NCBI GenBank assembly: GCA_029555085.1
Contig: JAKPTO010000026.1
Coordinates: 37,217 to 101,216 of the forward strand
DNA: 64,000 nucleotides
Source: a bacterium
GTDB lineage: Bacteria; Patescibacteriota; Patescibacteriia; UBA1558; S5-K13
Direction of reading: 5' to 3'
In this document: positions 1 through 56,758 of the stretch, piece after piece
Layout: each line of letters opens with the position of its first letter
Position numbering within the stretch: position 1 is the first letter of the stretch
Made by a program: the position numbers and the translations under genes
Notes under the pieces: generated by a model
What the model was told of the DNA's origin: nothing
Database searches by the model: none
The model's input: only the letters and a program-made list of their open reading frames with translations

Positions 1-1984
1 CAAGTCCTGTTTGATCTGTTAATGCCTTCATAATCTCAATGTCAATTTTTTTAAGTTTATCAATTGGCGCGTATGAGAAAAAATCAATTGAACCGATTAT
101 TTTATTTTCAGAATACATTGGAACAGCTATAGCTGATTTAGCATTTAATTCTTTTTGCATTTTATCAGCTTGATCTTTTGTTATTGCTGGTTTAAACACA
201 TCAAATACTGAACTACTTTTTTCTATATTACCAGAAGTCATTGCTTTTATAGCTAAATTATCTTTATTACTAAAGGATACACTATATTCATGGGGTTTTT
301 TTGGTAAAAATCCTACAACTTTTTTTATATCTTCATCAATTGTCATTGCTCCTATATACATAGCTTTTCCATCCTCGTCTATAAAATTAATTACACCAGC
401 CACAAATCCCATTTCTTTTTTTATACTGGTTGCTATAAATGAAGCAACCTCTTGAAAGTCTAAACTTCTTGTAATAACATTGCTAATTTTTTGTAGCGCT
501 GTTAAGTATTTATTTTTAGTTTCTAAATCTATATTTACTTGTCTCAAACTAAGAGTTGCTCGTTCAACTCTTTCTTGTAAATGAAGGTTAAGGTCTTGAA
601 TTTCATTATATAATTTTGCTTTTTCAAGTGCCATAGCAACTTGTGGTGTTAGAACTGATAATAAACCAATATCTTCTTCAGAAAAAGTATCTCCTGATAA
701 TTTCTTATCAATACAAAGCAATGCTGTTATTTGATTTTCAGAAACAATAGGAGCAATTAATCCTATTTTCATCTTATCTAATCTATCTACAATGGATAAT
801 AATCTTTGTTTTTCAAGGTCATTTTTTTGTTCTCTTGCTAATCTATCTAACTCTTCCACAACTATAATTTGTTTTTTTTCTTGTAAATAATTTATTATCT
901 CATCGTTTTTTGTAAAAAATATATCTCCTGATTCAAAACCCTTATACATTCCTGTTACAGTATTTTGATATAAAAAATTGACATCTCTACATTTTATAGA
1001 TTTTTCAAGCTCCTCGGACAAATCAATAAATAATTTTTTAAGTTCAATTTCTTTTGCTATTATAAATCCTAATTTTTTCAAAACATCCTGATAGTCAATT
1101 TTATCCTTAAAAAATATTTTATCAGTGATTCGCGCAAGAAAACGCTTTAATGGGTCGAATCCCAAAACTATAGCAAAAGAAACAAATACTGAAACAAATA
1201 TTTTAGAAAAACCCTCTGCTTCAAAAAATTGACCAGTAATAAATGTTATTGATGTAAAAGCAAAAGTCACGATACCAACAAGAAGAAAATATAGAATGCT
1301 TTTTGAAACAACAACGCGTATGTCCATAAGACGATACCTAGCTATAGCGTAACCAATTCCCAATATATAAAACATTGTACAAAAAGATCCAAAAGGGTAG
1401 ATATTTATTAATTGTGGAAAAAAATTAGTAACTCCGCCACCAAAACTAATTAATGCCGTTACTAAAACATATATTGCTTGTTGTTTTTTTAACCCACTTA
1501 ATTTTTTATAATTCCTTAAAAGGATATATATCGATAAAAAAACTAAAACACTAAAAAATAATGGAAAAATCGGATAAATAATTCCTGGATCTATCCAATG
1601 TCTAAAACCAAATTTGGGAGAAATCCCCAATTTAAATAACTTTGTAAAACTTAACAAAGATAATACGCACCCGAATGATAAAAAAATCCTAAAAACGATT
1701 TTATTAACTCCTTTATAAATATCTAATAAAACCAGCACAAACAAAAAGAAAAAAATCGGTATATATATAGCACTAAAATCTAAAAGATACTGACAAAATA
1801 ATGCAATATTATATTTTTCAAAAAAAACAACACCAAATAAACCAAAAGACCATACCGATGTTGAGAAACTAACACAGGACCAAGACACATTCAAAAGAGA
1901 TCTCTTGTTTTTTGAAATTACAAAAATACCAATAAATAAACCAAGTATAGATGTAATTAAAGACGATAATCCAAAAAATGACAT
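1..1984 (-). CDS. Membrane sensor protein, N-terminal ~660 aa: multi-TM domain followed by GAF-like domains and a coiled coil. The output domain lies beyond the window edge.
   Basis: Hand translation from the ATG at 1984-1982 (MSFFGLSSLITSILGLFIGIF...) stays open down to base 2. The first ~230 aa form 6-7 hydrophobic helices. Soluble segments that follow resemble GAF folds (...GLIAPIVSENQITALLCIDKK..., ...AVPMYSENKIIGSIDFFSY...). It is absent from the ORF track because its stop is off-window. Confidence 0.6.
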   Translation of the reverse strand, partial: MSFFGLSSLITSILGLFIGIFVISKNKRSLLNVSWSCVSFSTSVWSFGLFGVVFFEKYNIALFCQYLLDFSAIYIPIFFFLFVLVLLDIYKGVNKIVFRIFLSFGCVLSLLSFTKLFKLGISPKFGFRHWIDPGIIYPIFPLFFSVLVFLSIYILLRNYKKLSGLKKQQAIYVLVTALISFGGGVTNFFPQLINIYPFGSFCTMFYILGIGYAIARYRLMDIRVVVSKSILYFLLVGIVTFAFTSITFITGQFFEAEGFSKIFVSVFVSFAIVLGFDPLKRFLARITDKIFFKDKIDYQDVLKKLGFIIAKEIELKKLFIDLSEELEKSIKCRDVNFLYQNTVTGMYKGFESGDIFFTKNDEIINYLQEKKQIIVVEELDRLAREQKNDLEKQRLLSIVDRLDKMKIGLIAPIVSENQITALLCIDKKLSGDTFSEEDIGLLSVLTPQVAMALEKAKLYNEIQDLNLHLQERVERATLSLRQVNIDLETKNKYLTALQKISNVITRSLDFQEVASFIATSIKKEMGFVAGVINFIDEDGKAMYIGAMTIDEDIKKVVGFLPKKPHEYSVSFSNKDNLAIKAMTSGNIEKSSSVFDVFKPAITKDQADKMQKELNAKSAIAVPMYSENKIIGSIDFFSYAPIDKLKKIDIEIMKALTDQTGL

Positions 1985-1988
1985 ATTT

Positions 1989-2645
1989 TTAATTTAATAA
2001 AATTTTATTCAAATTTTTTTGACTAATAATTTTTTCCATATATTTATCTGGATTAACAATGAATGGATTTTCAACAATCGACAACAAATGTAAATCTGAT
2101 AAATGATCGCCATATGCATAGCTCCCACTTAAAGAAAGATTTTTTTCTTTTAAAAATTCAAGTACAGCTTGTTTTTTTTGAACCCCATAAATAACATTTC
2201 CTTCTATTGTTCCAGAATAAAATCCATTATTTTTTTGTAATTTTGTAGCTATGCAAAAATCCATTTCCAAAAAATCTGATATAATTTTAACAAGTGGATA
2301 GATAGATGCTGAAAGTAGAATAGTTATTGCGCCCCTTTCTTTGTGATAATTCAGTATATCAAAAATTTTTTTATAAATTCTTTTCTTAATTTCGGAATTA
2401 AAAAAATCTGTCAATATTTTTTCTAAAGCCACCTCGCTCCAGCCATTAAAAAATTTAAAAACTTTTTCTCTTATTTTTATAACATTTTGCACTAATCCTA
2501 ATTTATAAAAAATAAACCAAATTAATACATAACTATAAAGAAAAAACCCTATTTTCTTGTTTTTAAAAAGGTATTTAATTAAAAATTTTTGAGACTGTCC
2601 CTTTATAACAGTATCATCTAAATCAAAAAACACTACATAGCCCAT
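1989..2645 (-). CDS. HAD-IB family hydrolase/phosphatase
   Basis: 218-aa ORF with HAD motif I FFDLDDTV near the N-terminus and a C-terminal YGDHLSD (GDxxxD-like) motif. Confidence 0.75.
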   Translation of the reverse strand: MGYVVFFDLDDTVIKGQSQKFLIKYLFKNKKIGFFLYSYVLIWFIFYKLGLVQNVIKIREKVFKFFNGWSEVALEKILTDFFNSEIKKRIYKKIFDILNYHKERGAITILLSASIYPLVKIISDFLEMDFCIATKLQKNNGFYSGTIEGNVIYGVQKKQAVLEFLKEKNLSLSGSYAYGDHLSDLHLLSIVENPFIVNPDKYMEKIISQKNLNKILLN

Positions 2646-2652
2646 AAATTAT

Positions 2653-3237
2653 TTAAATTACTAAATTTAATATTTCACTCCTCAATCTCTCAGTTAAATC
2701 ATTTTCATCTAGATCGTTTAAAACAATTTTTTTTCCTATATTAATATCACATTTCTTTAACTTCGGATATTTATCAAATCTAGACATTATTTCAAACGCC
2801 CCTTTTATACCAACTGGTATTATTGGAACATTTACATTTTTAGCAATTCTAACAGCGCCATTATAAAACTTTCCGAGTTTACCATCACTAGATCTAGTGC
2901 CTTCAGGAAATATTCCAATTGCTCTACCTTGCTTTAAATATTCGATTGCTTTATTAAGTGATTCTGATTTATCCTTTGAATTTCTGTCAACTTTTATCTG
3001 CTTTGTAGATTTAACAAGCCAACTCCACTGCCATTTTTGAAAAAATACCTCCCCTGCTAAAAAATATATTCTTCTTGGGCAAACAGCTATAAGAGTAAGA
3101 AAATCAAAATAGCTTGAATGATTTGCACATATTACAAATGGTCCTTTTTTGGGAATATTTTCAATTCCCTTAACACTTCTTACCCAAACCAACCTAATTA
3201 ATGTTCCAATTGTATATTTTAAAATCCAGTAAATCAT
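2653..3237 (-). CDS. plsC: 1-acyl-sn-glycerol-3-phosphate acyltransferase (PlsC family)
   Basis: 194 aa with the H(X)4D acyltransferase motif NHSSYFD and the FPEGTRS motif. Confidence 0.85.
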   Translation of the reverse strand: MIYWILKYTIGTLIRLVWVRSVKGIENIPKKGPFVICANHSSYFDFLTLIAVCPRRIYFLAGEVFFQKWQWSWLVKSTKQIKVDRNSKDKSESLNKAIEYLKQGRAIGIFPEGTRSSDGKLGKFYNGAVRIAKNVNVPIIPVGIKGAFEIMSRFDKYPKLKKCDINIGKKIVLNDLDENDLTERLRSEILNLVI

Positions 3238-5064
3238 TTAATTATAAAAACTTCTTATTATTTTATTAAAATGCTCTATTATGGTTTCTCTTTTTATTTT
3301 TAAAGTTGGTGTAAGCTCATCATGTTTTTCATCAAATTGGCGTGACACAAGATAAAAATGAACAATCTGCTCGTACCTAGAAAAACCTTTTAATAAATTA
3401 TTAATCCTATCCCTATAAAAAATTTGTATTTTATCCAAATTTAAATAACTTTTTTCATTATCAACTGCTATATTATTCAAAGAGCAATATTTTTCTATTT
3501 CCTCAAAGTCCGGAACAATTAATGCTATTAGAAATTTTTCATTATTACCGATAACAATGGATTGATTTATATACTTATCATAATTCAACACTAATTCAAT
3601 ATTTCCAGGCACAACATTTTTCCCAGTTGATAAAACTATTACTTCTTTTTTTCTTCCGATTATATTTAAAAACCCATCTTTATCCAAAAATCCCAAATCC
3701 CCAGTATAAAACCATCCGTCAGTATCTATTACTTTTTCAGTTGATTCTTTATCATTATAATATTCCTTCATTACAGAGCTACCGCGAACTAAAATTTCTT
3801 TATCATTGTTTATTTTTACTTCTAAATTTTCCAACACAAATCCAACTGTTCCAAGTTTGTATTCATTCGTTTTATTTACAGAAATAATTGGCGAAGTTTC
3901 TGTGACCCCATATCCTTCTATTATTTTTATACCGACATCTTCAAAAAATCTAGCAATTCTTTTATCCAAACTTGATCCCCCTGATATTGCTAATCTTAAA
4001 TTCCCTCCAAATATATTTCTAATTTTTCTAAAAACAATCTTGTCTAAAATACCACATAAAATTAGTAAAAAAAAATTTATTTTTTTATTGTGTCTTTTAA
4101 GTGAGTTTAATTTGCTTTGATTTTTTATTGCAAAATAAAATAAATTATTTTTAAACTTTGAGTCACTTCTTAAATTATCATGAATTTTATCAAAAATTTT
4201 CTCAAAAATTCTAGGCACAGAAATAATTACCGTTGGCTTAGCTAGTTTTATATCATCAATAAGTGTTTTTGGGCTTCTGCTATAATATATTGAAACACCT
4301 GAAACTAACGGAAGAAATTGTCCCGCTACCCTCTCTAGTACATGTGACAGTGGTAAAAATGAAAAAAATATATCATTACTACATGTAGGCGTGTATTTTA
4401 AAACATTTTCTATATTGCTCAATATATTATAATTAGTAAGTACGGCGCCTTTTGGCATGTCAGTTGTTCCAGATGTGTATATTATTGTTGTAACAAGATT
4501 TTTATCGTTTATTGGTTCTATCTTTTTATTATTTTCAACTTTTAAAATATCATCAAAATATTTAACATTTTCTTTCTCAACTTTGTCAAAGGATATTATT
4601 TGTAAATCATCTATTAAATGCTCATCAATTCCATAAAAAACATTTAATAATTTGTCGTTTGATATAAAAATTATTTTGGGTTTTGTTTGTGAAATAATGT
4701 AGTCAATATATTTAGTTCCATAAGTTGTATGAATTGGAACTAAAATTAATCCCAAATAATTACAAGCTAAGTCAACAGTAGGCCACTCCCATCTGTTTTC
4801 AGAAAAAATTACAACCTTATCTCCTTTTTGTAATTTATTCTCAACGAAATAAGAAACTAATTTTAGAATATTTTCATTTAAACTTTTATAACTAATTTTT
4901 CTATAATTACCATTTTCTATGTATGCTAAAGCAGTATTACTTGGATATGTAATAACATTTTTTTTAAAATTAAGATATATGGTATTTTGATCCATTAATT
5001 TAGGTGATTTATATTTTAATTGTACCATAATTGGCCTAAAATAAAAAGAAAAAAACGAAGTCAA
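3238..5064 (-). CDS. Long-chain fatty acid-CoA ligase (AMP-binding enzyme)
   Basis: 608 aa with the AMP-binding signature IYTSGTTDMPKGAVLT, then GYGVTETS and YTGDLG motifs. Its stop abuts the plsC start. The start is uncertain (M1, M13 or M24). Confidence 0.85.
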   Translation of the reverse strand: MTSFFSFYFRPIMVQLKYKSPKLMDQNTIYLNFKKNVITYPSNTALAYIENGNYRKISYKSLNENILKLVSYFVENKLQKGDKVVIFSENRWEWPTVDLACNYLGLILVPIHTTYGTKYIDYIISQTKPKIIFISNDKLLNVFYGIDEHLIDDLQIISFDKVEKENVKYFDDILKVENNKKIEPINDKNLVTTIIYTSGTTDMPKGAVLTNYNILSNIENVLKYTPTCSNDIFFSFLPLSHVLERVAGQFLPLVSGVSIYYSRSPKTLIDDIKLAKPTVIISVPRIFEKIFDKIHDNLRSDSKFKNNLFYFAIKNQSKLNSLKRHNKKINFFLLILCGILDKIVFRKIRNIFGGNLRLAISGGSSLDKRIARFFEDVGIKIIEGYGVTETSPIISVNKTNEYKLGTVGFVLENLEVKINNDKEILVRGSSVMKEYYNDKESTEKVIDTDGWFYTGDLGFLDKDGFLNIIGRKKEVIVLSTGKNVVPGNIELVLNYDKYINQSIVIGNNEKFLIALIVPDFEEIEKYCSLNNIAVDNEKSYLNLDKIQIFYRDRINNLLKGFSRYEQIVHFYLVSRQFDEKHDELTPTLKIKRETIIEHFNKIIRSFYN

Positions 5065-28582: not shown

Positions 28583-28611
28583 CCTATGGGCAAGCTCGAA
28601 GGTTGAAAAAA

Positions 28612-29508
28612 TTATTTATACATTTCATCAACCCATTCACCAATTTTTACAACTGCATCTTCACTGTCACTTCTTTTATAAACCGACAAAACCGCAACAC
28701 AAATTTTCTTTTTCATGGGAGTTATATAACCAGCTGTAACATGAAATCTTGTTTCATTCAAAAAACCAGTTTTAGCTCCAAAATAATTCTGGGGATTATT
28801 TCTTAAATCATATACAGTGTGTTTTAAATTTATTTGTCTCCCCTCTCTTGTTGTGAAAGTATATTGTGGCTTGGAAGAATACTCGCTTATGTTTTCATTT
28901 GAAAATGCATGACATGTTACTATTGCCATGTCGCGAGCACTTGTTAAATTTTTCATTGACAATCCCGATGGATCGTCAATTAATGTTTTTGTAAGTCCCC
29001 ACTCGCTTGCAATTTTTCCCATATTTTCTAAAAATTGAGTTTTTGAAATTTCTGTAATTTTTGATAATTTATTTGCAGAATTATTTGCTGAAGCAATTAA
29101 AGTCGAAGCAAAAATATCTTTTATTTTTATTCTTTCTGTTGATTTTAATTTCAGAGTTACAAAAGAATCCCTTGGTCCAACATATTGCCTAAGATCTCCT
29201 TCGCTGTCTTGCCATGTTAAATTATAAGTTTTATTCCATAATGGAAAATGTTTTACAAACTCACTTGCGGTTATTAATTTCATCAAACTTGCGCTTGGCA
29301 TCTGACGCTCTTCTTGATGAAAATATAGCGGTTTCAAAGTTTCATATTCTATAACAGCTGCAGAAATATATGGAACATCTTTTCCGGTTTTCTCTTTATA
29401 CCAATTTGTAAAATCAACATAATTATCTTTTTTCTCTAAAGCAAAACAATTTGCAGGAATTGCAACTATTAAAATAAATAAAAAAATGATTAAAAATTTA
29501 TTTCGCAT
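28612..29508 (-). CDS. D-alanyl-D-alanine carboxypeptidase (serine peptidase S11 / PBP5-like)
   Basis: 298 aa with a signal/anchor sequence, SxxK (SASLMK), SxN (ASANNS) and KTG (AKTGFL) motifs. Confidence 0.85.
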   Translation of the reverse strand: MRNKFLIIFLFILIVAIPANCFALEKKDNYVDFTNWYKEKTGKDVPYISAAVIEYETLKPLYFHQEERQMPSASLMKLITASEFVKHFPLWNKTYNLTWQDSEGDLRQYVGPRDSFVTLKLKSTERIKIKDIFASTLIASANNSANKLSKITEISKTQFLENMGKIASEWGLTKTLIDDPSGLSMKNLTSARDMAIVTCHAFSNENISEYSSKPQYTFTTREGRQINLKHTVYDLRNNPQNYFGAKTGFLNETRFHVTAGYITPMKKKICVAVLSVYKRSDSEDAVVKIGEWVDEMYK

Positions 29509-46584: not shown

Positions 46585-47166
46585 TTAATTATTTAAAAAT
46601 TCAGACCATGTTTTACCAGAACCTGGAGTAATGTTTATTACCCATTTCCCCGGTGCCTTAGTACTGCCTAAAAATATCTGACAAGACAAAACATTTTCAT
46701 CTTTATTTTCATCTATAATAATAGACATTAAACCTTTTGGCATTGAAAAATTAATATCTAATGATTCTAATTCTTTTTCTTCGTATCCAAGTTCTGATTC
46801 ATCTTTAATTTTACACCGTAACTGATCAAAATAAAACTGACTTTCTAAAATATTTTCTGAATAAATTAAATTTTCATTATAAAAACCATAAACACCAATA
46901 TCTGCGTAAATATTATATGAATATGAACCATTTACATCCTTTAAAAAAATTATTCCATAACCATTAATAGGTACTGTATTTTGAATTTTTTGACCTGTTA
47001 GTGAAAGATTTTTTGTAAATCCTATTGAATCTTCTATGTCATAAGCTGTTAAACGAAATTCATTTATTCTTCTTGTATATCCATAATCAAGAATAACAAC
47101 ACTTAAGAGAATTACAAATATACCAATCGCAACTACAACCTCTATTATTGTAAAAGCTTTTTTCAT
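46585..47166 (-). CDS. Type IV pilin/pseudopilin (Ala at position -1)
   Basis: 193 aa with MKKA-FTIIEVVVAIGIFVILL. Confidence 0.7.
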   Translation of the reverse strand: MKKAFTIIEVVVAIGIFVILLSVVILDYGYTRRINEFRLTAYDIEDSIGFTKNLSLTGQKIQNTVPINGYGIIFLKDVNGSYSYNIYADIGVYGFYNENLIYSENILESQFYFDQLRCKIKDESELGYEEKELESLDINFSMPKGLMSIIIDENKDENVLSCQIFLGSTKAPGKWVINITPGSGKTWSEFLNN

Positions 47167-47960
47167 ATAATTAATAAATTAATATACCAATTCAATAATT
47201 GCTCTCCGAAAAGAAAAGAAATAAACATTGCAAAAGAAATAAATGGTCCAAGAGGAATTTTTAATTTAGTTTTTTCTTTTTTAGATTTAGATAATAAAAG
47301 AAAAATACCAATTATTGCTCCGGAAAAGTAAGTAATCAATAACGCCACAATTGTAATTTTAAATCCCAAAAGCGCACCCATAAAAACCCCGAGCAATATG
47401 TCTCCACTACCAAGCCATTTTCCTTTTGAAATAACATATTGTATACCAAAAAAAATTACTCCGAGAACAATCCCATAAAAAATATTTAAAATATTATTTT
47501 TCATTATTAAATTAAAAATAATAGATAAAACTATCCCCAAATAAACTATAAAATCCACTATTAAATAGTATTTCAAATCATAAATAAATATAAAAGACAA
47601 AATAAATACAAGTATTAAATAAAATATAAAGCTAATAATTAATTGACCATGAAGCCAAAGTCCAGAAACAAAGAAAAACCAATATCCGAATGAAAATAAA
47701 ATTCCTAGAATTACCTCAACAAAAAAATTCTCAAATTGAATCTTTGATTTACAATATCTACATTTCCCAAGTAAAACAATGTAAGAAAAAACTGGAATTA
47801 AATCTAAAATCCCCAATGTTTTTTTACAATTAAGACAATACGATCTATTAAGTATTGATTTTTCTTCATTTATTCGATAAATCAAGCAATCTAAAAAACT
47901 ACCAAAAACAGCCCCTAAAATAAAAAATAGTATATAGAACATACCATTATTATAGCACAA
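47163..47960 (-). CDS. pilD: Prepilin peptidase (A24 family, PilD)
   Basis: 265 aa, polytopic, with the N-terminal CLNC...CRYC zinc motif and GSGDILLG. It forms an ATGA overlap with the downstream pilin gene. Confidence 0.88.
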   Translation of the reverse strand: MCYNNGMFYILFFILGAVFGSFLDCLIYRINEEKSILNRSYCLNCKKTLGILDLIPVFSYIVLLGKCRYCKSKIQFENFFVEVILGILFSFGYWFFFVSGLWLHGQLIISFIFYLILVFILSFIFIYDLKYYLIVDFIVYLGIVLSIIFNLIMKNNILNIFYGIVLGVIFFGIQYVISKGKWLGSGDILLGVFMGALLGFKITIVALLITYFSGAIIGIFLLLSKSKKEKTKLKIPLGPFISFAMFISFLFGEQLLNWYINLLII

Positions 47961-50339: not shown

Positions 50340-51554
50340 TTATTGATAATATTTATTTCTATTATAGTTAAATTCAAAAGATTTATTAAAATCAGATACT
50401 AATGATGGAATATTTGAAACCATAATTGACTCATCGTTTCTAAAAAATCCCCCAGAACTCCAATTATTTGTTCCAAAAAGAGCTATTTTATCATCAAAAA
50501 TCATTAGATGATGGTGTAAAAAAGAATTTAAATTTTGTTCATTAAATATTTGTTTTAATTCTTTATTTCTATTTTCATCAGTCAAAATTTCTAAATTATC
50601 TAAATGATTTTGCTTTTTCTTTTTTATCATAAAATTAAATACGGAACCATCTACTGAAAAATTATAATCATCTGTTAAAATTTTTACACTAATCTTTTTT
50701 GATGCTAATAATAAATCTTCTGCAATATCTCTATCTGTCATAAGCCAAATCATGGATTTTATGTTGTCCTTTGAATTCTCAATCAGATTCAACATTCTAT
50801 CCTTGATACCAGTATTTATTCTTTGTGGAGTAAACCAAATTTCTAAAAATCCTTCTGGATATTTTATAAGAGCAGCGAATGGATTATATTCTTTTGATAA
50901 TTTATCTCTTCCGCGTAAACCAGAAAATATTCTATCAAATTCCTCTCCATATATTTCAATAATTTCTGGCCTGTCAGTTTCTAAAATAAAACTCGGATCA
51001 TATTTATCTTGAATATAAGTAAAATTATAAGAACTAAAGAGTAATTTCTGGGTCTCCTCGCCTCTATCAATTATTATAAATTTATGATGCATGTATTCTG
51101 ATTTTTGAGTATTAATGTTCCTAGACAAAATATCTTTTCTTGTAATATTATCTCGCTTTTCTGAAAACAATCTATTATTTATATCTCTATGCACATCACT
51201 AAAAACTAATTTTATATTCACTCCTCTGTCTGATGCTTTATAAATTGCATCTCTTATCCTTTCGTCGTTCATAGAATAAATAGCCACTTCAATGGTTTTT
51301 TGTGCAGAATTTATAGAATCAATAACAATTTTTGACAAAATGTTTTGTCCAAATTCATCATTAAAATGTAAACTCCCTGAAAATGGTTCTGTGATTTCTA
51401 TGATTTTCGCAGGCCTAAATTCTACTATTCTTCTCTTCGAAAAAGATGTAAAAAATAAGTATATAAAAATTCCCATTGTAATTAATAAAAGAATTGGAAT
51501 TGCCCAAAAAATAAATGTCTTATGTGATTTTTCTAATTTCATCACCCAGCTCAT
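50340..51554 (-). CDS. Membrane-anchored phospholipase D-family protein (two PLD repeats, the second with a variant HKD motif). Third gene of the RT operon.
   Basis: 404 aa with a TM helix (FIFWAIPILLLITMGIFIYLFF). The first motif is canonical: HHKFIIID...FSSYN. The second is HHHLMIFDDKIALFGTNNWS, with Lys replaced by His at the x-K position. It overlaps the upstream gene by 35 nt, or 23 nt if M5 is the start. Confidence 0.75.
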   Translation of the reverse strand: MSWVMKLEKSHKTFIFWAIPILLLITMGIFIYLFFTSFSKRRIVEFRPAKIIEITEPFSGSLHFNDEFGQNILSKIVIDSINSAQKTIEVAIYSMNDERIRDAIYKASDRGVNIKLVFSDVHRDINNRLFSEKRDNITRKDILSRNINTQKSEYMHHKFIIIDRGEETQKLLFSSYNFTYIQDKYDPSFILETDRPEIIEIYGEEFDRIFSGLRGRDKLSKEYNPFAALIKYPEGFLEIWFTPQRINTGIKDRMLNLIENSKDNIKSMIWLMTDRDIAEDLLLASKKISVKILTDDYNFSVDGSVFNFMIKKKKQNHLDNLEILTDENRNKELKQIFNEQNLNSFLHHHLMIFDDKIALFGTNNWSSGGFFRNDESIMVSNIPSLVSDFNKSFEFNYNRNKYYQ

Positions 51555-53235
51555 ATTTTTGCTGATAAGTTAAATAATTATTATTTTCTTTTGAAAATAC
51601 TATAATAATAGAATCTTCAAGTTTTTCACTTAATATTTCTATTATTTTTATAATATCATTATAATTCAAATCAATCCAAATATTGTCAATAATAATAAGT
51701 TGTTTTTTATTAACTATGCAATGGAGCGCTTGAAGAGCAAAGCATGAAACATTATTATTAAAAGCCAACACACAAGAAGAATTAACATTATTTATAGAAG
51801 ATATTTTTGATGCAATAAATTGATTTTCAGATATTACCTTGATCACATTTTCAATTTCAGAAGAATTAATTTGTTCTTTATCTTTCCCTAAAATAAACTC
51901 CATCAAACTTTTTTCTGAAAATATTTTAGGATCGAAAAAATATGCGCCACAGAATAATTTTTGCCATATTGGATAATCATATCTTTTATTGTCTATTTTC
52001 ACCTTCATTGCCTTGGGATTATAAATACGCATTCCTGCAAAAATTTTAGCCAAACTTGTTTTTCCTGAAAAATTCTCTCCAAAAAATAAAATTCTTTCTG
52101 ATTTTTTAAAATGAAAATCTAGATTTCTGAAATATTTACCATCTTTAAATAATTTTGTTTTTTTTGCGTGAAACAATATTTCATTATGAATTTTTAAAGT
52201 ATTTTTTCTACGCAAAACTGCTCCTTTTTGCAATACTGTTAAAAACAAACCCAATCTTGCTGGAAAAAAATATAAACCAACTCTTAGCGCTTGATTAAGT
52301 GTTCTTGGAAAATAGAACATTAAAAATAAAAATAAAAATCTATTATCTCTACCAAGTAAATTTATAAAAGAAAAAAACTCATTTGTAAAAAAATTGCTTA
52401 AAATTACAATTATCAAAACTATCACAAATACAATTTTTGCGCTTATTCCAATCCAAAGATTTCTTCTAATGCGAAAAAAAGAATCTATATTAACAAGACG
52501 ATCAAACTTTTGTAGCACACTATCTTCATTATTAAAATTTTTATTAAAATATTTTTCTGATAAGCTAATATCGATATGTTTTATTATTTGTGAATAAAAA
52601 GTGACTTCTTGCGAAATATATTTTTTTGCAACATAATAAGCTATTATTCCTATAAGAATAGAAAGTGCCACGAAAAAAACGAAAACAATAAATAAATTTA
52701 ATCCTATTAAATATGCAATGAGCATTGCCACAGAAAAATATATGAACCATCTAATTATTCCAAAAAAAACAATTGATACACCCATTGAAACAAGCGATAA
52801 TTGATAAGAAATTTTTGCTATTAACCTACCCTGCCTTTCGTTGTTCATTGTTTCAACGGGTCTATCAATAAATGATTTAAATATTCTGCGCCTAATATCA
52901 TTTGCAAATAATACCACAATAGTTTTTTCTTGTTTTATAGAAAAAAATGAACTTATGATAAACAACAATATAAAAATAGCAAAAAATTGCCAAAAAAATG
53001 GGTCTAAAATACTATTTAGCTGAGATAATTTATTTCTACTAAATACAATAAGAAACGCTTCTATTACACAGGAAACAAAAATTAAAAGAACAAGACGCAA
53101 AATATAAAATTTATATTTTTTAAAAAAATCTCGTAAATACCCGTAATGTAAAAACGATAATTTTATATCTTTGTATTTATTCCTTGTTTTTCTAATTTCT
53201 TTTATTAATCTAATTTGTTCTTTTATTTCTTTCAT
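51520..53235 (-). CDS. ABC-exporter-like protein (type I 6-TM domain fused to a degenerate nucleotide-binding domain). Second gene of the RT operon.
   Basis: 571 aa. The TMD resembles ABC exporters (ANDIRRRIFKSFIDRPVETMNNERQGRLIAKISYQL). In the NBD, Walker A is retained (GENFSGKTS). The LSGGQ signature is replaced (NNVSCFALQALHCI). Walker B is LIIIDNIW (catalytic Glu replaced by Asn). There is no H-loop His. It overlaps the RT gene by 26 nt. Confidence 0.7.
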   Translation of the reverse strand: MKEIKEQIRLIKEIRKTRNKYKDIKLSFLHYGYLRDFFKKYKFYILRLVLLIFVSCVIEAFLIVFSRNKLSQLNSILDPFFWQFFAIFILLFIISSFFSIKQEKTIVVLFANDIRRRIFKSFIDRPVETMNNERQGRLIAKISYQLSLVSMGVSIVFFGIIRWFIYFSVAMLIAYLIGLNLFIVFVFFVALSILIGIIAYYVAKKYISQEVTFYSQIIKHIDISLSEKYFNKNFNNEDSVLQKFDRLVNIDSFFRIRRNLWIGISAKIVFVIVLIIVILSNFFTNEFFSFINLLGRDNRFLFLFLMFYFPRTLNQALRVGLYFFPARLGLFLTVLQKGAVLRRKNTLKIHNEILFHAKKTKLFKDGKYFRNLDFHFKKSERILFFGENFSGKTSLAKIFAGMRIYNPKAMKVKIDNKRYDYPIWQKLFCGAYFFDPKIFSEKSLMEFILGKDKEQINSSEIENVIKVISENQFIASKISSINNVNSSCVLAFNNNVSCFALQALHCIVNKKQLIIIDNIWIDLNYNDIIKIIEILSEKLEDSIIIVFSKENNNYLTYQQKYELGDEIRKIT

Positions 53236-54427
53236 AATGAAAGTCTAAATAAAAATTATATAATGATTTTATTTTTAAATATTCTATCTCTTTTCTTAAC
53301 AACCTTCTGTTGCGTGGTGAATATTTACCAAATATAAAATCTGTTAAAATACGGAAAAAATCTTCTGATAATTTTTTTATTTGTTCTGAGTTATTGATTT
53401 GTGGTTTATCTTTTATAATTTTTTGAAATTGGTAGTTAAAATTTTTTTCTGGATGTCCCATAATCCTTCTCAGTAAATACTTTTTTTTACTTAAATTATA
53501 ATTTTTATATTTTAAAATACTTTTCCAACCAGCAATAATACGCTTAATATATGATTTTTCTAAACTAATAATTCCTGAATTAAAGCAGTAGCCTAAAAAA
53601 GAAAAATTTTCTTTTGCATCACCAATAAATAATTTGCTATTATTTATTGTTAAATTTCTAATATTCAAATCTTTGATAATTTCTAATTTTAATTTATTTA
53701 GCTTGTCTATGTTATTATCAAAAATACCTATATCATCTCCTATTCTTATATAAAATGAACATTGTTTTTGATATTTATGATCAAGGTCTGTTAAATATAA
53801 ATTATTAAAAAGTGCTATTAGTGGAACACCCTGGACAAGACCTATATCAGGTGCTTCTATCTTACCATTTTTATATATTTTATTAAAAATAAATAATTTT
53901 AATAAATCTAATATTTTTCTATCTTCAAAAATGTTTTCCAGTTGTGAGTATAAAACATTCTTATCAATCAAGTCAGAATAGTTTTCCAAATCTAACACTA
54001 ATGCTTTGTCTGTAGAAAAATTTTTCCTATATCTATGGCAAAAATTTTTTGCTGCAAAATATGGTGGCTTGCCCGGCCTATATGAAAACAATCTTTTTGA
54101 AAAAACTTTTTCAAATTCTGGTAATAAAACTCTATAAATTGCCTGTGCTTTTATACGATCTTTTATATTATAAATAAAAATATCCCTGAATTTCTCGGGA
54201 TTATTTTTTTTAGGAATTGAAACAATAAGTGCTGGCTCAATTTCCCTATTTTCAACTAATTCTTTTTGACAAATATCTATAAGCTCCTTTGAATTTAAAT
54301 CTCTGTCTTGTATTGAAATATTATCCAAACCGTGATATCTAAAACTTTTACTATCTATAGAAAATTTTTCCACTATATCTAAATAAGCAGATCGAATATT
54401 ATCATAAGATACAATTTTATTAAACAT
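53210..54427 (-). CDS. Stand-alone reverse transcriptase, with no endonuclease or recognisable maturase extension
   Basis: 405 aa with RT motifs in order:
- SIPKKNNPEKFRDIFIYNIKDRIKAQAIYRVL (motifs 1-2)
- SYRPGKPPYFAAKNF (motif 2a/3 region)
- LVLDLENYSDLID (motif A)
- GLVQGVPLIALFNNLYLTDLD (motif B)
- FYIRIGDDIGIF (YxDD-type motif C)
- LTINNSKLFI...FSFLGYCF (motifs 6-7)
A ~110-aa helical tail follows. Confidence 0.85.
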   Translation of the reverse strand: MFNKIVSYDNIRSAYLDIVEKFSIDSKSFRYHGLDNISIQDRDLNSKELIDICQKELVENREIEPALIVSIPKKNNPEKFRDIFIYNIKDRIKAQAIYRVLLPEFEKVFSKRLFSYRPGKPPYFAAKNFCHRYRKNFSTDKALVLDLENYSDLIDKNVLYSQLENIFEDRKILDLLKLFIFNKIYKNGKIEAPDIGLVQGVPLIALFNNLYLTDLDHKYQKQCSFYIRIGDDIGIFDNNIDKLNKLKLEIIKDLNIRNLTINNSKLFIGDAKENFSFLGYCFNSGIISLEKSYIKRIIAGWKSILKYKNYNLSKKKYLLRRIMGHPEKNFNYQFQKIIKDKPQINNSEQIKKLSEDFFRILTDFIFGKYSPRNRRLLRKEIEYLKIKSLYNFYLDFHYERNKRTN

Positions 54428-54430
54428 ATT

Positions 54431-54624
54431 TTTAAAAATCGTCCTCAGGATATATAATAAAAATACTATATATTAATAAATCTAATGAAGACCCCCGTCC
54501 ACAAACTGGTTACAACCGTTTCCATTTTAATTAATTCGATATTAACGAATATAAAAAATTAAAACTAAAACGATTATTAATATCTCCTAAAATAGGAGTT
54601 TTGAGGATGATTTTTAAAAGTACA
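54431..54624 (-). ncRNA. Candidate structured non-coding RNA / leader immediately upstream of the RT gene (retron msr-msd-like or DRT-type ncRNA)
   Basis: A 17-nt inverted repeat with one mismatch (54431-54447 against 54602-54618) encloses about 154 nt. Inside are local hairpins CTCCT/AGGAG (54584-54598), ATTCG/CGAAT (54534-54550) and AAAC(T)GG/CCGTTT (54501-54521). A locally GC-rich core GAAGACCCCCGTCC stands out in an otherwise AT-rich intergenic region. The 3' arm ends 4 nt before the RT ATG. Confidence 0.4.
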
Positions 54625-54630
54625 TAATAT

Positions 54631-54660
54631 ATTATAGCATGTCAATAAAGCGTATGTAAA
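54631..54660 (-). promoter_or_regulatory. Sigma70-type promoter with extended -10, driving the RT leader and operon
   Basis: Minus strand: TTTACA (54660-54655), an 18-nt spacer, then TGcTATAAT (-10 at 54636-54631). The predicted TSS is near 54624. Confidence 0.5.
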
Positions 54661-54679
54661 GAATAAATATATAATTTTG

Positions 54680-54697
54680 TGATATAATTAATCTATG
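54680..54697 (+). promoter_or_regulatory. Extended -10 promoter placed for a leaderless recG mRNA
   Basis: TGaTATAAT (54680-54688) lies 6 nt upstream of the recG ATG (54695). No SD is present. Confidence 0.45.
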
Positions 54698-56758
54698 AAT
54701 CTAGATACAACACTTGATAAAATCTACGGAATAGGTCCAACAATCTATAAAAAATTACAAAAAATCGGATTAAATACAATATCTGATGCTATTTTTTATT
54801 ATCCATTTAGATATGAAGATTTTTCCCATTTAAAACAAATAAATGAGCTTGTAAATGAAGAATCTGCCACTATAAAAGGAAAAATCATACTTTTAAACAA
54901 TAAGAGATCTCCTAGAAAAAAAATGAATATCACTGAAATGCTTTTAGGAGATGATTCCGGACAAATTCAGATAATTTGGTTTAATCAACCATATATTAAA
55001 AATATATTACAAATTGGAGATGAGATATTTGTTTCAGGTGTTGTAAAAAAATCACTTTTGGGATTATCACTTATAAATCCAAATTATGAAAAAACTAATA
55101 GAGACACATCACACACTGCAAGAATTATTCCTATATATCCATCAACAGAGCATTTATCACAGAAACAACTTAGATACATAATAAAACAATCCTTGTCTTG
55201 TATAAATGAATTACATGAAAGGTTACCAAGTCAAATTATTAAAAAAGAAAATTTAATAGAAATAAAAGAGGCAATAAAACAAATTCACTTTCCAGATAAT
55301 TATAAAAAATTAGATCTTGCAAAAAAAAGATTATCATTTGATGAAATATTTTTATTATCATGTTTATCAAAATTTATTAAAAAACAAAATATTGAATTAA
55401 GCGCTCCTCAAATTAATTTCAAGGAAAAACAGATAAAAGATTTAGTAAAAAAAATTCCATTTAAATTAACAGAAGATCAAAGAAAGGCAACCTGGCAAAT
55501 TCTAAAAGATATTAGCCACAAAATTCCAATGAATAGACTTCTTGAAGGCGATGTAGGAAGTGGAAAGACAATTGTTTCTTTTATCTGCGCTTACAATGTA
55601 ATCTTGAACAAATATCAAGCAATTTTAATGTCTCCTACTCAGATTTTAACAAAACAACACTTTGAAAATGCTGTAAAATTTTTCAAGGACTATGATATTA
55701 ATATTTTACTTTTTACAAACTCTGACAGATTATTATTTAATGGAAAAAAACAATTAGCACAAAAATTAACAAAAAAAGAAATTAATAAGTTTGTCAAAAA
55801 ATCTGATTTTATAATAGGAACTCATTCTTTAATTCAGCAAAATGTAGAATTCAAAAATATTGGGCTCATAATAATTGACGAGCAACACAGATTCGGAGTT
55901 AAGCAGCGTCAAGAATTAACAAAAAAATCAGATATTAGTCCACACTTTTTATCAATGACTGCAACTCCAATTCCAAGATCTCTAGCGCTTACAATTTATG
56001 GAGATTTAGATATTTCAAAAATTTTACAAAAACCAGCAAACAGAAAAAAAATTATTACAAAATTTGTATATTCTCGCAACAGAACAAAAGCTTATGAATT
56101 TATTTATAACCAGATCCAAAACGGCAGACAAGTTTTTGTTGTGTGTCCACTTATAAATGAATCGGATAAATTAGGAGTAAAATCCGTAATGAGTGAATAT
56201 GAAAAATTAAGCAACGACATTTTTCCAAATTTAAAAATAGAATATTTACATGGAAAAATGAAAGAAACAGAAAAGCAAAAAATTCTAAAAAGTTTTTCTG
56301 ACAATGAAACAAAAATTTTAGTATCAACTTCTGTTATTGAGGTTGGAATTGATTTTCCAAATGTAACAATAATGATAATTGAAGGTGCTGATAGATTTGG
56401 ATTGGCATCACTCCATCAATTTCGAGGTCGTGTTGGTCGCGGAGAACATCAATCATTTTGCTTTTTATTTTCTGAATCAAACTCAGAAAAATCCCGTAAA
56501 CGTTTAGAAATATTAACAAAAACAGATAATGGATTTGAACTCGCAGAATATGATTTAAAATTTCGTGGAAGTGGAGATTTGTATGGAATAAAACAATCAG
56601 GATTTATGAATGGAGTGAAAATTGCAGATTTATCAGATTTAGAATTAATCAAAAAATGCAATATTTGGGCTCAATATATTTTTGAAAAAGGTCTTGAAAA
56701 ATTCCCTCAAATAAAAAAAGAGATAGAATTACTATCTTCTGATATTCACTTGGAATAA
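54695..56758 (+). CDS. recG: ATP-dependent DNA helicase RecG
   Basis: 687 aa with an N-terminal wedge/OB region, helicase motifs GDVGSGKT and DEQHRFG, and HQFRGRVGRG. Confidence 0.95.
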   Translation: MNLDTTLDKIYGIGPTIYKKLQKIGLNTISDAIFYYPFRYEDFSHLKQINELVNEESATIKGKIILLNNKRSPRKKMNITEMLLGDDSGQIQIIWFNQPYIKNILQIGDEIFVSGVVKKSLLGLSLINPNYEKTNRDTSHTARIIPIYPSTEHLSQKQLRYIIKQSLSCINELHERLPSQIIKKENLIEIKEAIKQIHFPDNYKKLDLAKKRLSFDEIFLLSCLSKFIKKQNIELSAPQINFKEKQIKDLVKKIPFKLTEDQRKATWQILKDISHKIPMNRLLEGDVGSGKTIVSFICAYNVILNKYQAILMSPTQILTKQHFENAVKFFKDYDINILLFTNSDRLLFNGKKQLAQKLTKKEINKFVKKSDFIIGTHSLIQQNVEFKNIGLIIIDEQHRFGVKQRQELTKKSDISPHFLSMTATPIPRSLALTIYGDLDISKILQKPANRKKIITKFVYSRNRTKAYEFIYNQIQNGRQVFVVCPLINESDKLGVKSVMSEYEKLSNDIFPNLKIEYLHGKMKETEKQKILKSFSDNETKILVSTSVIEVGIDFPNVTIMIIEGADRFGLASLHQFRGRVGRGEHQSFCFLFSESNSEKSRKRLEILTKTDNGFELAEYDLKFRGSGDLYGIKQSGFMNGVKIADLSDLELIKKCNIWAQYIFEKGLEKFPQIKKEIELLSSDIHLE

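Follow-up and report, generated by a model that had tools for sequence, protein, structure and literature searches.

Class-2 DRT systems (DRT2/UG2, DRT9/UG28, DRT10/UG17 and UG27) carry a structured non-coding RNA (ncRNA) of ~140–300 nt beside the reverse transcriptase (RT) gene, usually upstream and on the same strand, with a large closing stem that bears several stem–loops (PMC9226505, PMC12632851, 10.64898/2026.09.22.753630). Their partners are often membrane proteins, such as SLATT in DRT10, and UG27 loci contain arrays of RNA units with conserved structure and diverse sequence (PMC9226505, PMC12632851, 10.64898/2026.09.22.753630). RT–ncRNA systems (retrons, DRT2, DRT9, DRT10, UG27) have recently revealed unexpected uses of cDNA, and some have become genome-editing tools. 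To our knowledge, no characterized RT–ncRNA system has an RT other than a retron or UG/Abi enzyme, or comes from outside the cultivable phyla. In group II introns, DIVa is a high-affinity site for the RT and contains the start of its ORF. The group-II-like RT G2L4 is not known to have a dedicated RNA or fixed partner genes.

Within the 64-kb stretch of DNA analyzed here (the window), we find a four-part cassette on the minus strand, consisting of an RNA, a group-II-intron-like RT, an ABC-exporter-like protein and a membrane PLD/Nuc-like protein, with the RNA as its first element. Among Patescibacteria (Falkowbacteria, Magasanikbacteria, Parcubacteria) this cassette is passed on as one unit, and its place in the genome varies. 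Its RT (53210–54427, 405 aa) is free-standing and matches Pfam RVT_1. The family alignment shows intact catalytic Asp residues, with R[IV]GDD in place of YxDD (compare YADD or YIDD). Against the NCBIfam model group_II_RT_mat (TIGR04416) it scores 125 bits, below the cutoff of 300. GsI-IIC was the best hit in a PDB profile search (113 bits, versus 28 bits for Ec86), and also the best Foldseek match (TM 0.81) to an AF2 model with a pLDDT of 91. Other TM values were 0.74 for G2L4, 0.69 for DRT9, 0.52 for DRT2 and ∼0.5 for retron RTs. The modeled fold has complete fingers, palm and thumb, and is group-II-like over its full length. PADLOC ranked a generic/group-II model first (7e-39), followed by UG26 (2e-31, 107 bits), UG17 (4e-25), RT_IX (8e-6) and RT_II-A (3e-5).

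The two protein genes downstream are tightly packed against the RT gene. The ABC-exporter-like gene (51520–53235, 571 aa) overlaps the RT stop by 26 nt and directly follows the RT in 46 of 48 loci. Its product has transmembrane and nucleotide-binding domains (Pfam ABC_membrane and ABC_tran; PDB matches to ABCB10, TM288 and YheH). The Walker A GK is invariant, Walker B reads D-N without the catalytic Glu, and no LSGGQ signature is conserved. The PLD/Nuc-like gene (50340–51554, 404 aa) overlaps the ABC stop by 35 nt and is present in 44 of 48 loci, being absent only at contig ends. It encodes an N-terminal membrane anchor and two PLDc_2 halves (Pfam PLDc_2, 3.8e-31), in which HxKx4D and a variant HxHx4D are both invariant; it matches NucT in NCBIfam, and NucT, Nuc and MitoPLD in the PDB.

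The RT, ABC-like and PLD-like genes are invariant neighbors, while the genes flanking them vary. The recG gene adjoins the cassette only in this window; the element thus travels with the RT and not with recG, contrary to one alternative raised in the initial annotation. Flanking genes are of housekeeping type (FtsE, NusB, RNase III, PilT, ComEC, pilins, DEAD-box helicase) and no defence-island enrichment was found among them, which leaves a defence role for the cassette unsupported. Viral contigs (IMG/VR) gave a single distant match, so the cassette is not typically phage-borne.

The RNA is closed by a long inverted repeat. The initial annotation had described 17-nt arms at 54431–54447 and 54602–54618 with one mismatch, A·C on the minus-strand (RT-sense) RNA and G·U on the plus strand. 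Both the arms and the mismatch call hold. A repeat search places these arms inside a longer repeat (54427–54447/54602–54622; 21 nt, 90% complementary, 154 nt apart), and the helix, here termed P1, extends to 20–22 bp in the window. The minimum-energy fold gives P1 20 pairs, between 54602–54623 and 54426–54447, reaching the A and U of the RT AUG. Two details needed correction: the 17-nt proximal arm stops 3 nt, not 4 nt, before the ATG, and instead of three hairpins there are four to five within the helix, namely P2, P3 (long, with P3b at its apex), a short P4 and P5. What had been called the only GC-rich stretch of the intergenic region contains P4.

Folding of the minus-strand intergenic RNA gave –58.1 kcal/mol (z = –5.0), and none of 200 shuffled sequences folded as well. 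The corresponding values for the plus strand were –50.6 kcal/mol and z = –4.5. For the fold of the whole RNA in the window, minus strand, z ranged from –5.0 to –6.2. Taken alone, the repeat is only moderately unusual. Inverted repeats of ≥17 nt within 300 nt number 77 in the AT-rich window, but only two of them reach 90% complementarity at ≥21 nt, and a low-complexity run, UUUUUAAAAA, makes up half of each P1 arm. It is the comparative evidence that is decisive: almost every homologous locus carries the helix, with covariation, and the repeat is therefore more than chance. These data show that the inverted repeat is real and corresponds to the helix P1, which closes an RT-sense, multi-helix, pseudoknotted RNA of ∼195 nt.

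This RNA spans 54428–54625 on the minus strand, with the layout P1-P2-PK-P3-P4-J4/5-P5-P1′. A covariance model of the family, R1, matches 54425–54625 (minus strand, 126 bits, E = 5e-30) and finds no second copy in the window. Upstream lies a putative promoter for the RNA/RT transcript (54631–54660, minus strand), with TTTACA at 54660–54655, an 18-nt spacer and TGcTATAAT. Its –10 hexamer (54636–54631) ends ∼6 nt upstream of the RNA. The site matches 11 of 12 consensus positions, has the extended –10 TG and is the top-scoring site in the region, though by consensus match only. On the same basis, the predicted transcription start is at about 54623–54626, coinciding with the first base of P1's 5′ arm. 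A –10-like hexamer occurs 3–12 nt upstream of the RNA in most homologous loci.

From 5′ to 3′, all on the minus strand, the 5′ arm of P1 (GUACUUUUAAAAAUCAUCCUCA, 54602–54623) leads through a conserved A-rich junction, AAAAC, into the short hairpin P2 (CUCCUA-UUU-UAGGAG, 54584–54598). The linker after P2 supplies the 5′ strand of the pseudoknot (GAUAUUAA, 54577–54584), which is complementary to the apical loop of P3. P3 is a long hairpin (54512–54577), made up of a base, P3a, and an apical part, P3b (54534–54550), that closes the 7-nt loop UUAAUAU; the 3′ strand of the pseudoknot (UUAAUAUC, 54538–54545) lies within it. P4 is a short GC-rich hairpin (GGAC-GGGG-GUCU, 54489–54500), weak in the window itself and placed there by homology only. 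Next comes J4/5 (54474–54487), the most conserved single-stranded motif, which reads CAUUAGAUUUAUUA in the window and YCUC-NUUGGAUUUAAU in the family consensus; the consensus from the model alignment is ccUCnuUggAuuUaauunaU, where capital letters denote ≥90%. J4/5 is possibly an RT-binding or initiation site, an inference made without binding data. P5, a 10-bp hairpin (AUAUAUAGUA-UUUU-UAUUAUAUAU, 54450–54473), precedes the 3′ arm of P1 (UGAGGACGAUUUUUAAAAAUAU, 54426–54447).

The same architecture (P1, P2, pseudoknot, P3, variable P4, conserved single-stranded motif, P5) is shared by 47 homologous genome loci and two metagenome loci. In nearly all 47, a segment 170–310 nt upstream pairs with the last ∼20 nt before the RT ATG, and the sequences of the arms vary by locus. 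P1 is 20 bp long in the window and 12–29 bp in homologues. With a MAFFT-only alignment, 88.3% of cells were paired, versus 36–46% when partners were slid, and 39 of 44 pairs showed double changes; none of 500 shuffles attained the observed values. A model-based alignment of 39 RNAs gave 91.2% of cells paired and compensatory changes in 34 of 37 pairs. All 38 RNAs tested folded with z below –3 (median –6.1).

Support was seen helix by helix. In P1, 12–13 of 13 core pairs were changed on both sides, with 94–95% of cells paired, and a sequence-only alignment still showed double changes in 12 of 13. P5 was comparable (90–93% of cells paired, double changes in 9 of 10 pairs), as were P3a (81–92%, 5 of 6) and P3b (88–93%, 4 of 4). 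P2 was the weakest helix, with 70–74% of cells paired and CG to UA changes. The pseudoknot, 91% paired with double changes in 6 of 7 pairs, was chosen by RNAalifold unprompted and is retained in the distant clade. Across clades it covaries as AUAUUA/UAAUAU, AUGCCG/CGGCAU, AUAUCA/UGAUAU, GCAUUA/UAAUGC and GUAUUA/UAAUAC. P4 is the family's hypervariable insertion point, ∼10 to 60 nt in the close clade (alignment A2) and expanded to two or three hairpins of 60–130 nt in the distant clade; it is wholly different even between tandem copies of one locus. An all-against-all scan of column covariation for further tertiary pairs was too noisy to use, owing to the phylogenetic and G–U background.

The comparative data also assign a strand. 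Read in the RT sense, G–U pairs outnumber A–C mismatches by 120 to 35 overall and by 35 to 4 in P1, and covariance-model scores are 120–173 bits for the sense strand versus 14–32 bits for the antisense strand. We therefore assign the RNA to the RT-sense strand. Two outcomes that would have refuted the initial annotation, namely a helix without conservation or covariation in homologues and pairing favored only on the plus strand, were not observed: the helix is kept, covaries, and is favored family-wide in the RT sense. The idea of an RT-linked structured RNA on this strand is thus supported by comparative data, its function being inferred.

In almost all loci the RNA precedes the RT, on the same strand, and in most of them it overlaps the region of the RT start. 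The P1 3′ arm comes within 1–7 nt of the ATG in about two-thirds of close-clade loci, whereas in several clades the helix stops 9–30 nt before it. In some loci the RNA is separated from the RT altogether. In locus L002 a copy stands alone, 2 kb away from the RT and with a terminator of its own; copy 1 of L008, also with its own terminator, lies directly after a tRNA-Tyr gene; and in L031 and L036 a terminator stands between RNA and RT. Complete tandem second units occur in L008, L032 and L047, with a partial second copy in L011; between tandem units the core is conserved and the P4 region divergent. Copies adjoining no ORF start (L002, L008 copy 1 and the upstream copies of L032 and L047) keep the full fold and compensatory changes. 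From the stand-alone and tandem copies with their own terminators, we conclude that this is not merely a leader RNA. Only a few copies stand alone, and the loci that carry them are possibly decaying.

A scan of 650 kb of metagenome DNA sharing a J4/5 16-mer with the RNA yielded two real model matches, each followed by RT and ABC genes. The remaining 118 of 120 loci were chance matches and served as a specificity control for the model.

Occlusion of the RT start by the fold, also proposed in the initial annotation, is plausible. Yet it is not the conserved function, since in other loci the helix lies 9–30 nt from the ATG, or a terminator or 2 kb intervenes. A Shine–Dalgarno-like motif was found in only 2 of 34 window genes. 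We considered and rejected GAGGA as a Shine–Dalgarno site: its spacing would be 14 nt, and the genome has almost no such sites.

How does this RNA/RT pair compare with described elements? On the features compared below, it does not qualify as a retron, group II intron, DGR or recognized DRT. None of 4227 Rfam covariance models matched the intergenic RNA; the only matches, SNORD91 (E = 4.5) and RybB (E = 0.73), fell outside it and were at chance level. An Rfam search of 53000–55500 up to E = 10 detected no group II intron ribozyme domains; only ∼197 nt lie upstream of the RT, and the downstream gene overlaps its stop. The RT, for which Pfam reports RVT_1 only, lacks a GIIM or endonuclease domain. 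It resembles group II intron RTs and G2L4 in its full fingers–palm–thumb architecture (TM 0.81 to GsI-IIC, 0.74 to G2L4), and differs from intron RTs in having no ribozyme domains around it, neither of those protein domains and a score below the NCBIfam cutoff. By analogy, an RNA that overlaps the start of its own RT gene is reminiscent of DIVa, and translational autoregulation may be possible. No DGR-like variable repeat was found in the 64-kb window, where matches to the intergenic region were AT-rich and ≤15 nt, and an accessory Avd gene is absent among the cassette neighbors.

Like class-2 DRT systems, the cassette combines a conserved structured RNA beside the RT, a closing stem with stem–loops and membrane-protein partners; its tandem RNA units, one or two per locus, recall the arrays of UG27. 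Unlike them, it has an RT that is not a clear UG/Abi member and that sequence and fold both place closer to group II intron RTs, and its RNA has no poly-U template, endless ORF or consistent A-B-A′ repeat. Its hosts are Patescibacteria only. ABC-exporter-like or PLD-like partners were not found for any DRT in the one UG/Abi survey examined for them (PMC9226505). A DRT2-like endless ORF was rejected, as the longest stop-free frames in 39 RNAs differ in strand, frame and position.

The cassette also shares with retron msr–msd loci a long, covarying, a1/a2-like inverted repeat (P1) that joins the ends of an RNA lying immediately 5′ of the RT, an internal region of variable hairpins and accessory effector genes in the same operon. 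Unlike retrons, it has an RT outside the retron clade, a pseudoknot, and no conserved branching G after the P1 5′ arm, where the junction is the conserved AAAAC. The likeness to retron a1/a2 repeats and to the end-joining stem of DRT template RNAs, which the initial annotation had pointed out, is thus held as analogy and not as membership, because the RT is group-II-intron-like and the branching G is missing.

A third resemblance, in topology, is to the core of telomerase RNA and the DRT10 ncRNA, which combines a closing helix and a pseudoknot with a single-stranded template situated just 3′ of a boundary helix. Here P1 encloses the core, the pseudoknot covaries, and the conserved single-stranded J4/5 directly follows, on the 3′ side, P4, a helix whose base (...CCUC) is conserved. 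No reproducible template-realignment repeat was found in J4/5, and the RT does not fall clearly in the UG17/TERT-like group. Short repeats can be read in J4/5 of several sequences (UU-GGA-UU, AAU-GGA-AAU, CAUU-GU-CAUU), with inconsistent period and register, and are expected in AU-rich RNA; no consistent A-B-A′ realignment repeat of the DRT10/telomerase type was found there. This topological resemblance is a possible lead and no more than an analogy. A tRNA-primer-binding-site reading of UGGAUUUAAU was dropped by inspection, as the implied tRNA 3′ end (U73, A72) would be atypical.

On balance, and by a modest margin, we favor the view that the RNA serves the RT as its cognate scaffold or template, and that P1 additionally masks the start of the RT gene. 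This is inferred, in the absence of expression, binding or cDNA data. P1 would join the RNA ends and frame a compact core of P2, pseudoknot, P3, J4/5 and P5, which the RT would recognize as its cognate ncRNA. Part of the RNA might then template a small cDNA, the top candidate by analogy being the hypervariable P4 region beside J4/5; this step would parallel retrons and the class-2 systems DRT2, DRT9, DRT10 and UG27. The ABC-like and PLD-like membrane proteins would form the output module. With its P1 3′ arm abutting the RT AUG in most loci, the window included, the folded RNA may keep RT translation low, or dependent on RNA processing or RT binding, as the organism hardly uses Shine–Dalgarno sites. 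Such cis-autoregulation would resemble the interaction of group II intron DIVa with its RT.

There are objections to this reading. The template role rests purely on analogy, again with no data on expression, binding or cDNA. Other group-II-like RTs, for example G2L4, function, as far as is known, without a dedicated RNA, which counts against a cognate RNA here. And a position 5′ of the RT, overlapping its start region, may equally be expected of a pure cis-regulator.

That rival survives best and remains possible. It holds that the RNA is purely a cis-acting 5′ leader of the RT operon, acting by start-codon masking or by attenuation with a terminator, under the control of a ligand or of the bound RT, the latter being autoregulation of the kind seen at group II intron DIVa, with no trans role as template or scaffold. 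In its favor, almost all loci have the RNA ahead of the RT and on its strand, and about two-thirds of those in the close clade have a P1 3′ arm that ends 1–7 nt short of the ATG. An organism without Shine–Dalgarno sites should be sensitive to structure at the start, and the terminator between RNA and RT in L031 and L036 is like a riboswitch expression platform. However, copies away from ORF starts (L002, L008 copy 1, upstream L032 and L047) keep the full fold with compensatory changes, the helix is 9–30 nt upstream of the ATG in several clades, and no Rfam family matches. Moreover, a five-helix, pseudoknotted RNA of 190–310 nt with a hypervariable insert exceeds what start-codon masking needs.

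A retron is very unlikely. In that case P1 would be the a1/a2 stem, P2–P3 the msr and P4–P5 the msd, and branched msDNA would be primed from the 2′-OH of a G beside a1. A long inverted repeat does join the ends, the RT lies immediately downstream with accessory genes, and some databases label homologues 'retron-type RT'. Yet the RT is outside the retron clade (PADLOC 8e-6 and 3e-5 for retron models versus 7e-39 for generic/group-II), it matches Ec86 at 28 bits versus 113 bits for GsI-IIC (TM ∼0.5 versus 0.81), and no G is conserved directly after the P1 5′ arm, where the junction reads AAAAC.

Equally improbable is that the RNA is a degenerate group II intron remnant, for example domain IV or IVa around the ORF, without present function. 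By sequence and by fold alike, the RT is most similar to RTs of group II introns, and DIVa does contain the ORF start. But no intron domains were detected up to E = 10, the upstream side offers only ∼197 nt, and downstream the following gene already overlaps the RT stop. Strong purifying and compensatory selection also acts on the RNA, and duplications take in the whole unit; the RNA is therefore functional, whether or not it descends from an intron.

Finally, the comparative data refute, to the point of near exclusion, a DNA-level or plus-strand feature of the recG–RT divergent intergenic region (an operator or plus-strand RNA) or a chance AT-rich repeat: in the window alone the mismatch is G·U on the plus and A·C on the minus strand, AT-rich DNA gives many inverted repeats (77 here) and half of each arm is low-complexity, but recG is adjacent in this window only, covariation of the helix extends over 49 loci, just 2 of the 77 repeats reach the quality of P1, RT-sense G–U pairs exceed A–C mismatches 35 to 4 in P1, and antisense model scores collapse.

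Beyond the cognate-RNA reading, a bolder one can be framed, which taken as a whole we would narrowly bet against: the cassette would be an undescribed class of RT system confined to Patescibacteria, in which an RNA–RT RNP drives the membrane module. As elements of this joint reading, the P4 hairpin would be copied into a small cDNA, and the RNP would signal to, or load, the degenerate ABC exporter and the PLD/Nuc-like enzyme. The system might serve abortive defence; a more radical possibility is that it exports or processes nucleic acid at the surface of these episymbiont cells. The covarying loop–linker pairing might even act in trans, dimerizing two RNPs.

The literature searched contained no description of an RT–ABC–PLD–RNA module, nor of a group-II-intron-like RT with a dedicated non-intron RNA partner; coverage was incomplete, and a prior description of the module is possible. 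The RNA is defined to the nucleotide, with a covariance model, at least 40 examples and natural compensatory variants, which makes the proposal directly testable. If it is true, a group-II-intron-like RT would have a dedicated non-intron RNA partner, and the ABC-like and PLD-like output module would be unprecedented. The family would also offer a view of how intron RTs are domesticated, with an RNA possibly descended from the intron's RT-binding site. For the ultra-small, largely uncultured Patescibacteria, it would mean an RT–ncRNA system specific to them.

The intergenic region at 54428–54694 separates the minus-strand reverse transcriptase (RT) gene (53210–54427) from plus-strand recG (54695–56758). 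An inverted-repeat search identified 21-nt arms at 54427–54447 and 54602–54622, 90% complementary and 154 nt apart, which contain and confirm the 17-nt arms of the initial annotation. Its single mismatch, described as A·C on the RT-sense RNA and G·U on the plus strand, also held. Predicted folding energies were –58.1 kcal/mol for the RT-sense intergenic RNA (z = –5.0) and –50.6 kcal/mol for the plus strand (z = –4.5). In the minimum-energy fold, the arms form P1, a helix of 20 pairs that extends to the AU of the RT AUG; inside it lie P2, the long hairpin P3, whose apical part is P3b, the short GC-rich hairpin P4, and P5. The count of three enclosed hairpins was inexact; there are four to five. 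Inverted repeats of ≥17 nt within 300 nt number 77 in the very AT-rich window, but only two show 90% complementarity at ≥21 nt. Taken alone, then, the repeat may be meaningful and is not conclusive. The sole other comparable repeat (52772–52793 and 52848–52869; 22 nt, 91% complementary, 54 nt apart) lies within the ABC-like gene.

Comparative analysis showed that P1 closes the ends of a conserved, covarying RNA (54428–54625, minus strand) genetically locked to a cassette of RT, ABC-exporter-like and PLD/Nuc-like genes. RT homologues numbered 176 at E < 1e-10; the majority lack an organism name, and all named ones are Patescibacteria. A genome scan found 47 homologous loci, with two divergent cassettes each in three genomes. 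Many of the cassette-bearing MAGs (L001–L044) are titled 'uncultured Gammaproteobacteria bacterium', yet both their genes and the relatives of their RTs are patescibacterial, so the titles are probably a submission-level mislabel. In nearly all 47 loci, the RT ATG is preceded by ∼20 nt that pair with sequence 170–310 nt upstream. Arm sequences vary despite this conserved pairing: the window has UGAGGACGAUUUUUAAAA, L014 pairs UUAGGGAGUGAGUGUA with UACACUCAUUCCCUAA, L022 pairs UUGGGGAGCGGUUUUACCUU with AAUGUAGGAUCGCUCCCUGA, and the helix reaches 28–29 bp in L037 and L046.

Individually folded homologous RNAs share one architecture, with z < –3 in all 38 tested (median –6.1). Given a MAFFT alignment of 29 RNAs built from sequence alone, RNAalifold itself recovered P1 and P5, as well as pairing of the P3 apical loop with the linker that follows P2. 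On this alignment we scored a six-helix structure (P1, P2, the pseudoknot, P3a, P3b and P5). Paired cells made up 88.3%, versus 36–46% with partners slid; 39 of 44 pairs changed on both sides, and none of 500 shuffles matched any observed measure. For P1, double changes occurred in 12 of 13 pairs and 94% of cells were paired. The helix proposed in the initial annotation is thus upheld as conserved and covarying. A covariance model of the RNA, R1, scored the window copy at 126 bits, close-clade loci at 80–173 bits and distant-clade loci at 29–41 bits; when 39 RNAs were aligned with R1, 91.2% of cells were paired and 34 of 37 pairs were compensatory. As a specificity control, 650 kb of metagenome contigs sharing a 16-mer with the RNA yielded just two R1 matches, each with RT and ABC genes downstream.

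The P3 apical loop can pair along its full seven nucleotides with the linker that follows P2, and changes in one are matched by changes in the other (linker/loop: GAUAUUA/UAAUAUC, GAUGCCG/CGGCAU(U), GAUAUCA/UGAUAUC, GGCAUUA/UAAUGCC, GGUAUUA/UAAUACC and GGUGUUA/UAACACC). This pseudoknot is 91% paired, with double changes in six of seven pairs, and the closing stem P3b covaries in all four of its pairs. With P3a fully stacked, the apical loop could not reach the linker at the base of P3. P3 may bend back at its large internal loop, P3 stacking and loop–linker pairing may alternate as two states, or the pairing may form in trans between two RNAs; these possibilities remain undistinguished.

The RNA belongs to the RT-sense strand, although the window's own mismatch points the opposite way. 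Antisense R1 scores at the same loci were only 14–32 bits, and on the RT-sense strand G–U pairs outnumbered A–C mismatches (120 versus 35 overall and 35 versus 4 in P1 on the MAFFT-only alignment; 126 versus 29 on the R1 alignment), both of which argue that the RNA functions in this orientation. Pairing favoured only on the plus strand, which would have unlinked the helix from the RT, is therefore not seen family-wide. The top promoter match in the region (TTTACA, 18 nt, TGcTATAAT; 11/12 score) has its –10 hexamer ending at 54631, and this consensus match places the predicted transcription start on the opening bases of the P1 5′ arm. A –10-like hexamer lies 3–12 nt upstream of the RNA in most homologous loci. 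There is no terminator between RNA and RT in the window, so the RT transcript here begins with the RNA.

The initial annotation also held that the fold would occlude the start codon. The P1 3′ arm abuts the AUG in the window and most close relatives, and the genome is nearly without Shine–Dalgarno sites (motifs at 2 of 34 long ORFs of the window, with several genes looking leaderless), so folded P1 should limit RT translation. Occlusion is thus a plausible inference for these loci. An extended –10 box (TGnTATAAT) ends ∼6–8 nt before the ATG of several window genes, suggesting leaderless mRNAs; such starts include recG (54671–54697, tgtgatataattaatctATG), 28611–29508 and 47162–47942. P0001 (393 aa), the public gene call for the identical protein, spans just 95% of the RT ORF, making it 12 residues shorter. 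The longer N-terminus (MFNKIVSYDNIRSAY) is conserved family-wide, with N10, A14 and Y15 invariant, which supports the start at 54427.

In several loci the RNA lies apart from the RT start, and in several clades P1 ends 9–30 nt before the ATG. What is conserved is thus the RNA fold rather than the masking of the AUG. In L002, an intrinsic terminator (1989–2019) comes after the sole copy (1800–1987, 128 bits), and duplicated pilin genes lie in the 2 kb between that copy and the RT. The RNA there is surrounded, and cut off from its RT, by a tandem array of three paralogous type IV pilin-like genes (794–3992; shared N-terminus MKSKKAFTLIELLVVIAIIGILA). L008 has one complete copy directly 3′ of a tRNA-Tyr gene with its own terminator at the end (3514–3707) and a second abutting the RT (3817–4003); they differ by a compensatory C–G to U–A change in P1 and throughout P4. 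The first copy includes the initial 6 nt of the RT ORF, then the terminator, and may be a remnant of a duplication or integration event. Two complete tandem units occur in L032 (919–1194 and 1218–1522) and L047 (3388–3660 and 3684–3999); within each pair the core is shared and the P4 regions are unrelated. L011 has a partial extra unit (3632–3801), and in L031 and L036 a terminator separates RNA from RT.

Clustering the ORFs of all loci (n = 48) showed an invariant order of RNA, RT, ABC-exporter-like gene (46/48; 51520–53235 in the window) and PLD/Nuc-like membrane protein gene (44/48, absent solely at contig ends; 50340–51554). Window overlaps are 26 nt for RT/ABC-like and 35 nt for ABC-like/PLD-like. 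Flanking housekeeping genes vary by locus (FtsE, NusB, RNase III, PilT, ComEC, pilins, DEAD-box helicase), and recG adjoins the cassette in the window only. Pilin, PilT-like and ComEC-like genes also lie near the cassette in L006, L007, L025–L029, L040 and L045, where chance is not excluded. Only one IMG/VR contig carries the RT.

All three catalytic Asp residues of the RT are kept, and in the family alignment (A1) an invariant R[IV]GDD replaces YxDD, with Tyr changed to Val or Ile and Gly next (residues ∼228–232). The RT scored 125 bits against the group II maturase model (cutoff 300), and domain searches found no GIIM or endonuclease domain. GsI-IIC was closest in profile searches (113 bits; DRT9 51, DRT2 47, G2L4 38, Ec86 28), and the AF2 model (pLDDT 91) superposes on it full-length (TM 0.81; G2L4 0.74, DRT9 0.69, DRT2 0.52). 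The ABC-like protein resembles the exporters ABCB10, TM288 and YheH; its nucleotide-binding domain has Walker B D-N without the catalytic Glu and lacks the conserved LSGGQ signature. The PLD-like protein, similar to NucT, Nuc and MitoPLD, has an anchor at its N terminus and carries a canonical HxKx4D motif together with an invariant HxHx4D. Both partners thus have conserved yet non-canonical active sites.

The likeness to a1/a2 repeats suggested initially holds for the end-joining helix, but retron identity fails, as the RT falls outside the retron clade and no conserved G lies beside P1. A DRT10-type system would need a consistent realignment repeat, which was not found. DRT2 is ruled out by the lack of a conserved stop-free frame, a DGR by the missing variable-repeat copy in the window, and a group II intron by an Rfam search that detected no intron domains. 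Rfam gave no credible match to the RNA, only two chance-level matches outside it (E up to 10).

We infer that the RNA is likely the RT's cognate partner, able to act as a separate RNA. By analogy with retron msd and UG27 hairpin templates, it may contain the template for a small cDNA, an inference to which we give no more weight than to its opposite; the best candidate would be the hypervariable P4 region beside P5 and the invariant single-stranded motif J4/5. P1 would also restrain translation of the RT, and the membrane ABC-like and PLD-like proteins would be the effectors. A defence role is possible as a default guess, without support from genomic context. The RT–ABC–PLD–RNA module is undescribed in the literature searched (including UG/Abi, myRT, DRT10 and genome-language-model papers), coverage of which was incomplete. 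Within that coverage, the RT lineage, the RNA family and the partner genes are all new among RT–ncRNA systems.
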